Part shown: positions 49,601-58,600 of the stretch, in pieces | Numbering within the stretch: the stretch's first letter is position 1 | How the letters are laid out: each line of letters starts with the position of its first letter | Source: an uncultured Lachnospiraceae bacterium | GTDB lineage: Bacteria > Bacillota > Clostridia > TANB77 > CAG-508 | Assembly (NCBI GenBank): GCA_964616165.1 | Contig: CAZTTS010000001.1 | Coordinates: 17,537-81,536 of the forward strand | Length of the DNA stretch: 64,000 bases | Reading direction: 5' to 3' | Position numbers: made by a program

Positions 49601-52600
49601 GAAATACAAAGAGAAGGGAAATAGAAAAAGTAAGAATATGATAATACTAGAACAATATAGAGATATATGGATGAGCGAAAAGATGGATGAAGTGATAGGG
49701 TTTTATCCAAGAGAGTTTTATTGTTTTGACAATTTTAGTTCTTTTAAAGTTTTTTATAATGGATATTTATATTCAACATTAGAAGAGGCATATCAAGCAA
49801 TAGGATTTAAAGAAAGTGCTCCTGAAATTTATGATGAAATTATAAAGAGTTATTCTGCTCATGAAGCACAAAAAATAGCTTATAAAAATAAAGACAAACA
49901 AAGAGAAGATTGGGATGAAGTGAAAGTAGATATAATGGAAAAGCTAATAAGAGCTAAATTAGAACAAAATCCATATGTAAAAAAGAAATTGTTAGATACA
50001 AAGGACTATTTAATTGTTGAAGATTCACCGAAAGACGATTTTTGGGGTTGGGGAGAAGACCGAAAAGGCGAAAATCAGTTAGGTAAATTATGGATGAAAC
50101 TAAGAGACGAACTAAGAAAAAGAGAAACACAGTCCATTGATAATGTGTTTTGATTAAATTATAATAAATTTATAATAATAATAAAAAAATAAAGGAGATA
50201 TTATGAAAAAAGGAAGTAAAATATTTATAATAGTAATATTGTTTTTAATTGTTATAGCAATTTTAGCATACTTTTTTTATCCTCAAATACTAGAATTATT
50301 ACATAAAAATGGGCAGGATGCAGAAGAACAAGAACTAGAAGAGGTAGAAGAGCAAGATAAAAGTATAGAAGCAGTGAGAAAAGTAGTTTTAAATGGAAAA
50401 GAGCAGAGCCTAAGATTTGAATATGTTTATGATCAAAAAACAAGAAATGCAACAGATTATGATCTAAAACAAGGAAAAGAAAAACAAGTTTTTAATGATG
50501 TTAAAGCAAAACTGTATTTAGATGATGTATATTTAGGAGAAGCCTATTTGTATGATAATAGCTATTATTTAGACGAATTTGATAATCCTATAGAAAAAGC
50601 TATCACTTTAGAAGACACTAAAAATTATATGAAAAATGAATTTATATTAGAAGATGTGGTAGATTATAAAACAATTAAAGGGCAAAATAAGAGTAAAGAG
50701 ATAAAAGATTTTCTTTATATAAAAATTCTTGATACAGGTTATACTATTGCAATAGCTGAAGAAACTCTTCCTTTATATTTATATTTTCCTTTTATTATAA
50801 ACGATAAAGGAGAAAAGATATATGAAATAGAAGGAGCTGTAAAGCAAATTAATATTCCAGAATTTCCAATGTCTAGCGAAGATAAAGAAAAATATGGTGA
50901 AGGAAAAATTCATTTTTATGAACAAGACGGGTTGACTAAAATAGAACATATAGCTGTTGAATATACTGAAGAAGAAGAAAGTTGGCATAACCATAAATTT
51001 TATATTAGAACTCTTTATTTGTTTGAAGGCGAAATGAAAGAAGAAAAAAGATTTTTAGAAAAATATGAATAATATAAAAAATAAAAAAATAAATAAAATA
51101 AAGGAGAAAAAATGAAAAAAGGAATTAAAATTTTTATAACTATTTTAGTGTTTGTTTTAATAATAGGCGCTGTATTAACTGCTGCTTATTATTTAGATGC
51201 AGATTTCTTAAAAACATTTAAGAAAGGTGAAGGTACAGAACATACAAGTGAAGATGTAAAAAATTTACCGGAAATTAAGGATAAAACAGAAGGACAAGTT
51301 AGGAAAATAATATTAAATGGAAAAGAACATACTTTATCATTTAAATATTTTTATTTTGAAAAAAATAATATTGATGATATAGGCTTAGGTGAAGATCATT
51401 ATGTTGAAGCAGGTTCAAAAACGATTACTTCAGCAGAATATGAAACCTCTCCGAAGTATGTAGTAGGAGTTGGAGTTTATTTTAACGATGTTTTATTAAA
51501 TGACAATGTATATGTTAAAGCTGCATGGGAGGCAAATGCTACCTTAGATACTATAAAAAACAAAATGCTAAATGAGTTTATTTTAGAAGATGTTGTAGAA
51601 ACTAAAGTAATTAAAGGAAGCTTAGATGGTGAAACAACTCAAACTATAGAATACTTATTTTTAACCACTTATGCCATTCCAAGACAAGCAATGGTAAGTT
51701 GTCCTCCCAAATATACACCTTTAATTTTAAACGATAAGGGAGAAATACTTCATGAAATTGAAGATAATCATTCTAGTGGTACCGTAGAGTATAAATTAAC
51801 AGATGGTTTTGAACAACAAAAATATGACAAACATGGATTTCGTCACTATCAAGATGATGGAGTAGATTATATTCAATATCTAGCACATGAAGATATTCTA
51901 CAAGGAAACAGAATATTAAGAAGAAACTTTTATATTAAAACAATACATGTTGAAAATAATGAAATAAAATCTACAATAAAAAAGTTAAGCAAAGAAGAAA
52001 TCGAGATAGGTTCAGGAGAAACAACACTAGAAGATGAAGCAGAATGGGATGAAGAGGTTATTGATTAATAAAAATGGAAAAAATAATTAGGTAAGCGCAA
52101 AAAATATAAGAAACTTGTATGAAAATACAAGTTTTTTGTTTTTTATGGTAACTAAATTGTATAAAATGTATGTTAATTTTGTAATTTAAGATTCAAATCA
52201 TTGAAAAAACATATTAAAAGCTATATATAGAAAGTAATTATATGTAGGAGAAAATATAGTGGCAGAAAAAATACAGATTAAAGATAATAATCTAGCACAA
52301 TTGTTTGTAAAAGAACTTATAGCTTTAGGTGTTCGAAAAGAAGACACTTCTTTAGATAAGATTATGTTTACCAAAGAAGAATTATCTCAAATTACTAAAT
52401 TAAATATAGATGGACATCAAATTGAAAGTATAGAAGGTTTAGAAAACTGCACTAATTTAACAGCATTATATATTGAATCTCCTAGTCTTGAGGCTATCTT
52501 AGAAAATCTTAGTGAAGAAGAAAAAGATAGCTATCTATCACAACGTAAAAGTATTGTTGATCCAAGTATAATAGAAAAGCTAGAAAGTTTAGAAATATTA

Positions 52601-55600: not shown

Positions 55601-58600
55601 CATTTATAGATTTTTATACTAATGAGTTTTTAAATTTAGATTCTAGAACATCTAGTATTATTAAATCAGAATTATCTAGAATAACTTCAATATTTATATC
55701 AAATTATAATATTAATCAATGTTTTTGTCCTAAAAAAGAAGAAATAAATTTTTCTGGATTTGAAGAATGTATTGAAAAAGGTCAAGTTGTAGTTTTGAAT
55801 ATGAATATTTCTGAATATAGAAATCTATCTAAAATAATAGCAGCATATTTAAAATTTGATTTTCAAACAGCGGTTTTAAAAAGATTAGGTCAAAGTATAA
55901 ATATTAAAGAAGTGTTTTTCATATCTGATGAATATCAAGAATATGTTACAGAATCAGATGCAAATTTTTATGCAACTGCTAGAGAAGCAAAATGCATAAA
56001 TATAGTTGCAACACAAAGTTATACATCATTACAAAATGCATTATCATCAAAAGAATCTACAGATGTAATAATACAAAACATTATTAATAAAATTTGGCTT
56101 AGAATTGATGATAATTATACGATTGAGTCTGCAATTAAACAGATAGGCAAAGAAGAAAAAGAAAGAGTTGGTAAAACATTGTCAGAAAATTCTAAAACTA
56201 GCATGTATAACTATTTTACAAAAAGTTTTACTTCAATAGACTCAGGTCTTTCAGAGAGTTATAATAAAACATATCAATTAGAAGATAGATTTAATCCAAA
56301 ATTCTTTTCACAAGAATTAGAAATATTTGAAGCATTAATATTTATATCAGATGGGAAGAAAATATTAATACCTGAAAAAATAAAATTAATACCAGAGTTT
56401 TTAAGAATGAAATAAAATTAAAGAAAGAGCTATTTTTAATAGCTCTTTTCTAATTTATAATTTAAATATATCTAGTAATTTTTATTATGTTTAAAAATTT
56501 TTTAATTTTCTTCTGTAATTTTCTTTTTATAATAAAATTACATTGGCGTCTTTGCTTGTAATTAAAGTTTCATCTGACCAAACAGAGGCCTGTACTTCGC
56601 CTATATGAACCTTGTGCATAAAAAACATACACATTCTTGATTGGCCAATTCCTCCTCCAATTGTTAGAGGTAGTTCGTTATTTAAAAGTGCTTTGTGATA
56701 AGGCATTGTTAATCGATCTTCACTATTTGCTAAAGTTATTTGATCTTTTAAACTTTTTTCGTCAACTCTAATTCCCATTGAAGAAAGTTCCATAGCTCTG
56801 TTTAGAACAGGATACCAAAATATAATATCTCCATTTAGATTCCAGTCATCATAGTCGGGTGCCCTAACACCATGTGGTTCACCTGATTTTAATTTATGAC
56901 CTATTTGCATAAGAAAAATTGCTTTCTTATCTTTTGTGATTGCTTCTTCTCTTGCATCTGGATCTAAGTGAGGATAAAGATCTTCTAATTCTTGTGCCGT
57001 TAAAAAATAAATGTCATCTGGAAGCATTGGTGTAAGACTAGGATATAGATTACAAATATAAGCTTCTGTTTTTTTAAAAACTTTATAAATTCTCTTAACA
57101 ATATTTTTTAGACTTTCAATATTTCTATCTTCTTTTGAAATGATTAGCTCCCAATCCCATTGATCAACATAAATAGAATGAAGATTTCCTAAATCTTCGT
57201 CACGTCTGATTGCATTCATGTCAGCATAAAGCCCTTCTCCTAATTTAAAATTATATCTTTTAAGTGCAAATCTTTTCCATTTAGCTAAAGATTGTACAAT
57301 TTCAGAAGTAGCTTCAAAATCTTTTACATCGAAAGAAACTGGTCTTTCAATACCACTAAGATTGTCATTTAAGCCTGTTTCTGGTCTTACAATTATAGGT
57401 GCTGATATTCTAGTTAAATTTAGTTCTTCCCCAAGCTTTTGTTCAAAGTAGTCTTTGATTTGTTTGATTGCTGCCACTGTTTCCCTGATATCAAGCTTGG
57501 AGATGTAATTTTCAGGGAAAATGTGTTCGTATGATATTGACATATTAGTTCCTTCCTTTCTTAGTAATAAATGTCAATAGGATAACATATAAGAGAACTT
57601 TTTGCAATAAGTTAAAAGGGAAATATAAAATATAAGCTTAAAAAACTTTTTATTTTAAACGAATATCAAAATAATTGACACAAAAATAAATAAGTGGTAT
57701 ATTGCCTTAAACTTTTTAAAAGTTTAATGTATTTTAAAAAGATATAGGGAAGGGGAGAAGGAGTATGATTTGAAAAGACATATTTATTTTATACAAAAAA
57801 AGATTTTAATTAGAGTTATTAAAGCACTTGTTTTTTTAATTCTAATAACACTATTAGTTTTTATTCTATTAAATACAATCTCATATGCAGGAGCAAATCC
57901 CGCATTTATTCAAACAACATCCCAAGCATTTGAAAAAATACAGAAATATATAGTCAGAATTGCAACTCCAATATCTGCCGTTTCATTAGGAGTAGGCCTT
58001 TTGATGAGAAAATTTAGTTTTGGAGAAGAAGAGAGAATCAGAACAGCTAAAAAAGTAATAAGAGGAACTCTTGTATCATATGCTCTAATATTATCTGTAG
58101 ACTTAATTTTAGAATTAGTTAAGACTATATTAAGATAGTGCAAGACAATAATGCTGTTCTAAATACAATTCAATCAATGACAAATCAAATTTTTACATCA
58201 ATTGACAAATCATTAATTGATGTTTTAGATAGATTTGTTTATGTTGACGAAAGTTTGCTGCGAGAAAACACAATATTTATATTTACTAGCAAAATTGAAA
58301 TGACAATGAGAGTGATAGCGGAATCACTACTATTGGGTTATGTAATATATTATTTAACTAGATATTTAATTAGTAGGATAACAGCTGTTAATAAAGATGA
58401 TTTAGAAAATCCTGCAATTTTTTTTGTAAAAATGGTCCTTATTAGTATTGCTATATTTTATTCTACAGATATATGTAAAATGATAGTAGAAATTAATAGC
58501 AATATTACAAAAGATTTTGGAAATAACCTCACGACAAGTGGTCTGTTACCAACCTTTAATAGATTTTTACATACTGTAAATTATACTCTATTGGGAGGAG

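Follow-up and report, generated by a model that had tools for sequence, protein, structure and literature searches.

Protein-translocating type IV secretion systems (T4SSs) and the signals they read have been well studied in Gram-negative bacteria and, to our knowledge, are much less defined in Gram-positive ones; we are aware of none that has been characterised in an uncultured lineage from the gut. Among described systems, the X-Tfe effectors of Xanthomonadales join a variable N-terminal payload to a conserved C-terminal domain, XVIPCD, that is recognised by VirD4 (PMC7777525). Here we analyse a gene pair of comparable layout in a 64,000-nucleotide stretch of DNA from an uncultured Lachnospiraceae bacterium (GenBank assembly GCA_964616165.1, contig CAZTTS010000001.1, positions 17,537 to 81,536 of the forward strand), referred to below as the window. 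The first gene encodes a 596-aa protein with leucine-rich repeats (LRRs), a transglutaminase (TGase)-fold domain and a C-terminal module (CTM), the second a 148-aa partner (orf148), and a gene for a VirD4-like type IV coupling protein (T4CP) follows. From the comparisons below, the LRR-TGase protein appears to be a pseudoenzyme, and its secretion through a T4SS is plausible.

Architecturally, X-Tfe effectors are what the protein most resembles. As in X-Tfe/XVIPCD, a variable payload sits on a C-terminal domain, a small partner gene is linked and no Sec signal is present. Unlike XVIPCD (~120 residues), the CTM spans ~50 residues, with no detectable homology between the two; its partner gene lies downstream and is common to different payloads, whereas X-Tfi immunity genes lie upstream and are payload-specific; and the host is Gram-positive with a minimal T4SS.

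Other parallels are partial. IpaH/SspH-type secreted effectors carry LRRs for targeting at the N-terminus, joined to a catalytic domain that depends on a Cys, and the window protein likewise fuses an N-terminal LRR to a Cys-enzyme-type domain; the two are likened by architecture only, the catalytic domain of IpaH/SspH being a NEL E3 ligase and their export relying on type III secretion with an N-terminal signal. In Legionella, the papain/TGase-like effector RavJ is paired with an LRR metaeffector, LegL1 (PDB 4xa9), but these are separate proteins of a Gram-negative Dot/Icm system and RavJ is active, whereas the window protein unites LRR and TGase in one chain and no longer has the Cys. Catalytically dead TGase homologues are known in eukaryotes (erythrocyte protein 4.2; axonemal TGase-like FAP246 and DRC7); unlike the window protein, these are structural proteins in an unrelated domain context and have no secretion module. 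BTLCP/LapG-type proteins are periplasmic or exported Cys-His-Asp proteases associated with a type I system and an adhesin, a description the window protein does not fit. On the secretion side, the window shares its component set (VirB4-like, T4CP, VirB6-like and pilin-like proteins) with the minimal Gram-positive T4SSs (VirB1/VirB4/VirB6/VirD4 sets) on integrative and conjugative elements (ICEs); unlike those ICE-borne systems, its genes are dispersed in the core chromosome near oriC and syntenic with dnaB/dnaI in at least 80 loci. Pseudoenzymes, LRRs joined to Cys-enzyme domains and modular effectors that come with adaptors are all known kinds. What is new here is the CTM together with the orf148 family, and the possibility that both are tied to a minimal T4SS on a Gram-positive chromosome: neither CTM nor orf148 family had a match in Pfam, NCBIfam, PADLOC, PHROGs, solved structures, annotated plasmids or phages, and literature searches found nothing on them.

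The LRR-TGase protein has lost the catalytic cysteine of its relatives

The 596-aa protein (Table 1) has no signal peptide or transmembrane (TM) segment, its maximum Kyte-Doolittle 19-residue mean being 0.82. The LRR domain matched internalin 4fmz by PDB phmmer (E 3.8e-6) and InlB, InlA and InlF by Foldseek (E ~3e-6, probability 1.0); AlphaFold2 (AF2) pLDDT is mostly >85 across residues 1-230, and the tandem ~22-residue LRR solenoid typical of internalin-type proteins is present. All Pfam LRR models scored below their cut-offs. The sequence contains no Sec signal (no hydrophobic N-terminus) and no LPXTG or GW cell-wall anchor motif; with signal peptide and anchor missing, we would class the protein as LRR-containing yet not as an internalin.

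The following domain matches Pfam Transglut_core (PF01841) at residues 258-375 (35.5 bits against a cut-off of 23, E 1.3e-8). Its nucleophile position is occupied by Ser321, in GISEGYA, followed by His359 (NHSVIRV) and Asp374 (YYFDPT), so that the catalytic His and Asp of the TGase superfamily are present and the catalytic Cys is missing. The full-length model returned LRR proteins only in a Foldseek search of the PDB, and a second model of the TGase domain alone was therefore used; in the predicted fold, as in the superfamily, the nucleophile helix packs on the beta-sheet that bears the His and Asp. The models were built from alignments of 7-8 sequences (mean pLDDT 68-71), with an insert at residues 272-313 lying outside the model. 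Nearest among solved structures is Streptococcus pyogenes TglA (PDB 9crn), at 13% identity and with no sequence-level hit; a PDB sequence-profile search with the TGase domain gave zero hits, and literature searches found no paper describing the function of TglA. These results bear out the original prediction of an ORF without signal peptide in which N-terminal LRRs precede a TGase core with Ser at the nucleophile position and a downstream H...DPT, and the TGase-like fold that it proposed to check is supported by both Pfam and the domain model.

Relatives of the protein were collected by a word-indexed search, which gave 16, and by an exhaustive profile search with the TGase domain, which gave 203 representatives at E <1e-10. 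In most of the latter the TGase domain begins near residue 220, consistent with N-terminal LRRs of the kind present in the window protein. Profile alignment placed Cys-His-Asp at the equivalents of Ser321/His359/Asp374 in 135 of the best ~150 relatives, most of the others being truncated fragments. The only close relatives without the Cys are the window protein with its strain variants (Ser), P0004 (Thr), P0005 (Phe) and P0006 (Ile, with His replaced by Thr), and these coincide exactly with the orthologues located upstream of the T4CP, which represent four species-level lineages. In a neighbour-joining tree the Cys-less sequences form a single clade on a long stem, nested among Cys-bearing sequences. 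Since the position is filled by four different residues, two of which (Phe and Ile) are incapable of acting as nucleophiles, the shared function of the clade would need no catalysis. The 596-aa protein thus reads as a pseudoenzyme descended from active Cys-His-Asp relatives, and we are fairly confident that it is one and that it belongs to the modular CTM/orf148 family described below.

An active hydrolase, for which the change from Cys would mean a functional switch to a Ser-His-Asp triad or a Thr nucleophile, could draw on the retention of His359 and Asp374 beside Ser321 in the window protein and beside Thr in P0004. Phe and Ile occur at this position in orthologues at the same locus, however, so a clade-wide function cannot need a nucleophile, and Cys is the residue that the great majority of relatives use. 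We therefore rejected a Ser-nucleophile enzyme, which we consider most unlikely, although Ser-based activity may exist in the window species alone. The Cys-to-Ser change is thus not supported as a functional substitution, and the inactive TGase-fold scaffold, offered as an alternative in the original prediction, is the better catalytic reading.

A C-terminal module shared by unrelated front ends

The C-terminal part of the protein (residues 441-596) is E/K/D-rich with a net charge of -16, much as originally described. Within it lies the CTM, with the motif L..(A/S)Y....I(T/S/N).EDL..A...L.(R/K)T..(E/D)R (alignment A7), predicted as helices at 502-523 and 529-586 in the AF2 model. A polar or acidic stretch follows, often with G-R close to the terminus: orthologues end in KGRQLWKDN and QGRIL, and 870-aa relatives in FEGR.

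Profiles of the CTM, each built from one group only, were run against 11,287 ORFs, making the comparison reciprocal and non-circular. The profile of the 870-type proteins found the 347-aa HExxH protein at 2.6e-13, a 329-aa protein at 5e-10 and L001 at 5e-5, and that of the window clade found the 870-type proteins at 2e-6 to 1e-4 and the 329-aa protein at 3.5e-4. The module accordingly ends four architectures, namely the window clade, the 870-type Cys-bearing LRR-TGase, the 347-aa HExxH protein and the 329-aa protein (L109), and hidden Markov model matches to it always fall at the C-terminus. A word-indexed search with the CTM profile yielded 13 short fragments only and no further payloads, and a PDB sequence search found nothing in the C-terminal region of the 596-aa protein.

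Other LRR-TGases carry different tails (e.g. ...HGMSM, ...DDDYIW) and, where visible, different downstream genes. In P0030-P0055, the tails after acidic runs read ...(H/N/Y)GMS(M/R), ...DD(D/G)(Y/F)I(W/R) or ...RRI(L/HM). These recurrent endings point to several kinds of tail, each of which may have a separate partner.

The partner gene follows the module and not the payload

orf148 starts within the last LRR-TGase codons, at ggtctATGGGACTAG (ATG; 10-nt overlap), which agrees with the translational coupling first proposed. Clustered at 90% identity, the family forms at least 238 groups, whose members share 40-55% identity with the window orf148. Neither orf148 nor the LRR-TGase protein matched NCBIfam, PADLOC or PHROG, and for orf148 Pfam gave only a weak, sub-threshold DUF3932 hit (E 0.16). 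Relatives of orf148 were absent from the IMG/VR viral contigs, annotated plasmids and phages searched; the LRR-TGase had no match among annotated plasmids.

In most contexts examined where the upstream protein could be assessed, an orf148 homologue lies directly downstream of a CTM gene (L001, L003, L004, L103, L108-L110, L101, L105-L107). In L103 and L108-L110 the upstream genes encode 870- and 875-aa Cys-bearing LRR-TGases, and the L108-L110 pair was found between two unrelated sets of flanking genes. Another homologue follows the 347-aa HExxH protein, which has no TGase domain, on a relaxase-bearing element inserted in aroA, and a second, divergent paralogue follows a 514-aa protein of unknown family (L108 14651-16455; L110 12603-14408). 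Because the partner follows the CTM rather than the payload and is kept when the payload is dead, the pattern is better explained if orf148 is a chaperone or adaptor than if it is an immunity protein.

Two of these contexts deserve description in their own right. The aroA element (L101 3416-14853; also L102, L105-L107) is a ~10-kb integrative mobilisable element that splits aroA into EPSP synthase fragments of 127 and 287 aa and carries a Mob_Pre relaxase, a serine recombinase, Bro-N, DUF6076 and the HExxH-CTM/orf148 pair. It is very common in gut metagenomes. Its orf148 protein is listed in up to 575 blocks of the collection, and some copies of the element have a broken HExxH gene or a broken relaxase. 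In the 514-aa protein, four motifs can be picked out by eye in the order Y..(A)INGFLRG, LIRRDSR, FVSTS, EYEESE, a series that recalls the R-S-E ADP-ribosyltransferases; neither Pfam nor a sequence search of the PDB supported this, and it is offered as a lead only.

The LRR-TGase gene diverges rapidly under purifying selection

We compared the window with its three syntenic loci (L001, L003, L004). The LRR-TGase is 40-45% identical across them and orf148 47-54%, whereas the T4SS genes are 74-86% identical and at least ten neighbours, including the G5-3D protein, T4CP, pilin-like, VirB6-like, pyrG, dnaB_2, dnaI, tadA and gyrA, are 70-91% identical, making the LRR-TGase the fastest-evolving gene at the locus. 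A similar picture emerges between strains: of 36 nucleotide differences in 7.5 kb between the window and a second strain (L020), 34 fall inside the LRR-TGase gene, within 52330-53771, while the T4CP, orf148 and the two membrane-protein genes upstream show one difference each at most. Such a sharply bounded divergent allele probably represents a recombination import; localised divergence is commoner in genes for interaction with other organisms. Between the two alleles dN/dS is 0.20, which indicates that the LRR-TGase is functional and under purifying selection. Reading frames are intact in all LRR-TGase orthologues, with conserved motifs throughout the protein.

A minimal T4SS near the origin of replication

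Downstream of the pair, the 571-aa ORF encodes a genuine coupling protein of the VirD4/TraD type. It matches TrwB_AAD_bind (3.8e-9), TraG-D_C (3.9e-6) and the TraD subfamily (3.3e-14) in Pfam and NCBIfam, is 23-30% identical to plasmid coupling proteins (tblastn) and is 74-79% identical to the T4CPs of L001, L003 and L004 by tblastn, or 76-80% when aligned. A VirB4-like ATPase gene elsewhere in the window matches the CD1110 family (1.8e-78) and the mycoplasma ICE Mbov_0397 family (3.8e-73).

A metagenome scan with the T4CP alignment gave 80 related loci (L021-L100), many of them from the human gut, whose T4CPs are 46-56% identical to that of the window. In these, a cassette of micro-ORF, T4CP, pilin-like, VirB6-like, orf106 and dnaB_2 (and dnaI) genes is syntenic wherever the contig reaches (window 54502-63282). 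The cassette contains no relaxase or integrase, and neither is in view around the T4SS genes, which are scattered over the core chromosome in the vicinity of oriC. The cassette has the look of a minimal T4SS that was domesticated in the chromosome and is passed on by vertical descent.

Weighing export through the coupling protein

In the mechanism that we favour, the protein would act by binding rather than catalysis, its LRR face and dead TGase groove holding a target. The 148-aa protein would bind the CTM as a chaperone or adaptor and present the complex to a secretion ATPase, for which the VirD4-like T4CP encoded 650 bp downstream is the most plausible candidate, and export would proceed through the chromosomal minimal T4SS (VirB4-like, pilin-like, VirB6-like). 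The T4CP leads among delivery candidates because the pair adjoins it throughout the clade, another such pair resides on a relaxase-bearing element and a Sec signal is absent. Mobilisable elements with a relaxase, of the Mob_Pre and serine recombinase type, depend on a T4SS. A constant CTM on swapped front ends, together with a dedicated small downstream partner, also follows the logic of delivered effectors. The full model of a dead-enzyme binder, an orf148 adaptor and T4CP-dependent export is put forward tentatively, as having a real chance of being right while falling short of probable.

Several observations weigh against this model. First, the sequence of the module itself: the 870-type CTM profile misses the window protein and reaches only its orthologues in L001 and L004, so that the CTM membership of the window protein rests on the clade profile and the conserved partner; its C-terminal 150 residues have no detectable similarity to XVIPCD, BID or any Pfam family; and its tail is acidic, in contrast to VirB/D4 signals, which as a rule are basic. 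The structure models, moreover, draw on the shallow alignments mentioned above. Second, the genomic linkage: in the ~8 kb flanking the T4CP on each side, none of the 80 related loci (0/80) gave a hit for the TGase domain, LRR-TGase or orf148; the Cys-keeping relatives (L005, L006, L016, L018, L108, L109) do not adjoin T4SS genes; and other CTM/orf148 pairs occur in unrelated contexts with no T4SS genes in view. Finally, the pair has a putative promoter of its own that is not of the T4SS type, and since it lies in a tRNA-bounded variable island, its adjacency to the T4CP could be incidental. The neighbours of the Cys-keeping relatives are ctpA and clpC (L005), a PHP-domain gene (L006), cvpA and an HD-like gene (L016), and radical-SAM and SUKH_5 genes (L018).

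Most of these points would suit a protein that serves for binding or as a scaffold in the cytoplasm and has nothing to do with the T4SS, such as a regulator, a sensor or a mobile-element accessory, brought next to the T4CP by a shared integration hot spot. The absence of the pair from the related T4CP loci, its unlinked relatives and the separate putative promoter all fit, as do a tRNA-Arg-bounded island whose content varies between lineages and the different genes, among them an integrase-like ORF, found upstream of the T4CP in other lineages. Yet the adjacency has been retained in four species-level lineages despite orthologue identities of only 40-45%, a constant C-terminal module with swapped front ends and a dedicated partner is typical of delivered proteins, and one CTM/orf148 pair travels with a relaxase. 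Localised allelic diversity, too, is more usual in proteins that face other organisms. On this evidence we regard a purely cytoplasmic role, the main rival, as somewhat unlikely.

The outcome for the original prediction of a secreted effector or accessory factor is therefore divided. A conserved module of the expected kind was found where a C-terminal secretion signal had been anticipated, but without the XVIPCD/BID similarity and basic character of known signals. Adjacency to the T4CP holds in the immediate orthologues and is absent from the wider set of T4CP loci, and the proposed refutation, orthologues unlinked to T4SS genes, applies to the wider family only. The effector reading survives on indirect grounds, while the T4CP loci without the pair and the unlinked relatives make a core accessory role unlikely.

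A decaying toxin-immunity module is the next alternative, in which an ancestral active TGase or protease toxin with orf148 as its immunity protein was disarmed by loss of the Cys and the pair is now drifting. Loss of the nucleophile with four different replacements and the rapid divergence of the LRR-TGase would both be expected of such a module, and the HExxH gene is broken in some copies of its mobile element. Behind one Cys-keeping relative, P0035 (637 aa, with a different tail; L018 10001-12349), comes a SUKH_5 protein (E 8e-12); members of this family are mostly annotated as immunity proteins of polymorphic toxins, and the pairing suggests that some active members of the LRR-TGase family are toxins. 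Immunity proteins are normally specific to the toxin domain, however, and the orf148 family follows front ends as unrelated as a TGase, an HExxH protein and the 514-aa protein, for which reason a payload-specific immunity role for orf148 was rejected. As in polymorphic toxins, interchangeable front ends sit on a constant region, but the downstream gene does not change with the toxin domain, orf148 homologues standing behind each CTM front end that was examined. orf148 is itself unrelated to SUKH_5 (hhalign probability 0.1), and the low dN/dS and intact frames speak against decay. We find this account improbable.

Two further readings carry very little weight. Anti-phage or anti-plasmid defence by a repeat-domain sensor and a small partner would accord with a variable island or mobile element location, rapid evolution and the repeat domain, but neither protein matches PADLOC or PHROG, no effector domain is recognisable once the TGase is dead and an NTPase or nuclease partner is absent, so that we hold it to be highly improbable. 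A structural or accessory T4SS component, for instance an assembly factor in the way that LapG-type TGase-like proteases serve type I secretion, is scarcely to be expected of a protein that lacks a T4SS-type promoter and is far less conserved than the T4SS genes, and as a core component it was rejected because the 80 related loci have the same cassette without the pair.

Setting and features of the locus

The window (G+C ~26%) covers the chromosomal origin region, marked by mnmG and mnmE (minus strand), dnaA (7783), dnaN, recF and gyrB, with gyrA at 41112. Related metagenome-assembled genomes carry depositor labels that range over Bacilli, Clostridia, Lachnospirales and Lachnospiraceae. The tRNA-Arg at the edge of the island (Table 1) also follows the G5-3D gene in L001 and L003, and the island between it and the T4CP promoter holds 2, 3 or 6 genes. 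Gene order in the window, L001 and L003 is tRNA-Arg, (0-4 genes), LRR-TGase, orf148, promoter, micro-ORF, T4CP, pilin-like, VirB6-like; L004 keeps the same order from the LRR-TGase onward, without the tRNA. Among related T4CP loci the genes upstream of the T4CP vary by lineage. The LRR-TGase/orf148 pair probably arrived in the island as a mobile two-gene module, in the ancestor of the small clade.

Table 1. Coordinates of the pair, its domains and neighbouring features in the window
Feature	Coordinates	Strand	Remarks
tRNA-Arg(CCT)	48309..48384	+	ARAGORN; upstream edge of variable island ending at T4CP promoter
Putative own promoter of the LRR-TGase/orf148 pair, TTGAAA-17-TATATA	52201..52229	+	Read from sequence; not T4SS-type
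LRR / TGase-fold pseudoenzyme (predicted) / CTM protein, 596 aa	52259..54049	+	GTG start, AGGAG 8 nt upstream
Internalin-like LRR domain, residues 1-225	52259..52933	+	PDB phmmer, AF2, Foldseek
Transglutaminase/papain-like fold domain, residues 226-440	52934..53578	+	Triad codons 53219-53221 (Ser321), 53333-53335 (His359), 53378-53380 (Asp374)
Low-complexity linker, probably disordered, residues 441-510	53579..53788	+	pLDDT <50 over 443-504 (AF2); poorly conserved
C-terminal helical module (CTM), residues 511-564	53789..53950	+	Common to unrelated front ends
Acidic tail ending GRGRGLWD, residues 565-596, pI 4.2	53951..54046	+	Sequence composition
Partner gene (orf148 family), 148 aa, candidate CTM-binding adaptor/chaperone	54040..54486	+	Overlaps upstream stop by 10 nt
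T4SS-type promoter ('copy 2'), TTGACA-17-TATATT (54502-54530) plus conserved TGCCTTAAA	54502..54538	+	Conserved in L001, L003, L004
Micro-ORF, 44 aa (INHLFFIILILNILIIIYFIYSVFESIFFQNKQGSKLKKEQSKK), one TM helix and basic tail QGSKLKK	54555..54689	+	Previously unannotated; stretch first read as promoter only
VirD4/TraD-like T4CP, 571 aa	54700..56415	+	TTG start, N-terminal TM segments, Walker A GSIGTGKTSS
Intrinsic-terminator-like hairpin, bidirectional	56423..56449	+	After T4CP; shared with convergent asnA-like gene
Second exact copy of T4SS-type promoter	57675..57711	+	Upstream of pilin-like (57770-58138) and VirB6-like (58138-58992) genes

Transcription of the pair would start from the putative promoter directly upstream, whose TTGAxA...TATA is conserved in the window, L001 and L004; the consensus promoter scan did not list the window copy. 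The T4SS-type promoter block TTGACACAAAAAyAwATAAGTGGTATATTGCCTTAAA, about 37-46 nt, recurs exactly at 57675 (chance expectation 0.02), and a related form stands at 14557, upstream of the VirB4-like ATPase gene; the original reading of a repeated promoter ahead of a coupling protein gene is thus upheld. Between this promoter and the T4CP lies the micro-ORF, with AAAGGAGG 6 nt upstream of an apparent ATA start, a strong ribosome binding site, and an end 10 nt short of the start of the T4CP. Loci differ in it by synonymous changes, and phmmer found a match with the QGSKLK motif upstream of the T4CP in 70/80 related loci.

Similarity between the leaders at 14557-14620 and 54502-54560 extends beyond the promoter. 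Each has GGAG(G/A)T and, ~5-7 nt further on, an ATA, an in-frame ATG being absent, and the VirB4 frame (INTLDFLEIENIIEDIL...) also apparently starts at ATA. The ATG listed at 14554, which runs into the -35 box, is probably an artefact. The two leaders may share a conserved non-canonical start, which would hint at translational control. The VirB4-like gene (14608-17134) is apparently split, ORF 14608-15339 covering positions 104-243 of the mycoplasma-ICE VirB4 profile and ORF 15284-17134 positions 306-893; the halves overlap by 56 nt in different frames. A frameshift could account for this, as could a natural split or a misassembly. Within 56527-57711, the window lineage alone has a minus-strand asnA-like gene inserted between the T4CP and pilin-like genes, these two genes being contiguous in L001 and L004 and 115 nt apart in L003. 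The promoter copy at 57675 looks like a duplication that restored pilin-like/VirB6-like transcription after the operon was split.

Directly upstream of the LRR-TGase, also in the variable island, two tandem paralogous membrane-anchored proteins of 289 and 318 aa are encoded (50203-52068). The 318-aa protein has no family match, and the 289-aa protein has weak sub-threshold Pfam hits on its N-terminal TM segment only; both evolve fast, being 52% and 29% identical to the one copy in L001, and L003 has neither. Farther upstream, an MmeI-family restriction-modification gene (33240-41023) is apparently split into N-terminal and helicase-spacer domains (33240-34406) and methyltransferase, target recognition and C-terminal domains (39446-41023), the ~5 kb between the halves holding a HaeIII-like C5 methylase (34728-35714), a HaeIII endonuclease (35733-36704) and ORFs of no known kind.

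Implications

The clade offers a clean natural case of an enzyme turned binding protein, in which the catalytic residue was replaced in four ways in four sister lineages while purifying selection was kept. Should the T4SS link prove wrong, the gene would be an ordinary island-borne pseudoenzyme. A wider reading, doubtful as a whole, would take the CTM and orf148 as an undescribed signal-adaptor pair that recruits diverse cargo (active TGase-like, HExxH and dead-enzyme LRR proteins) to the T4CP of a domesticated minimal T4SS, in a lineage of low-GC uncultured gut Bacillota where the system is vertically conserved beside dnaB/dnaI. The locus places a candidate signal, a candidate adaptor and a coupling protein side by side, and, if this reading is true, it would mean a protein-effector T4SS in Gram-positive gut commensals, with some of the cargo supplied by mobile elements.

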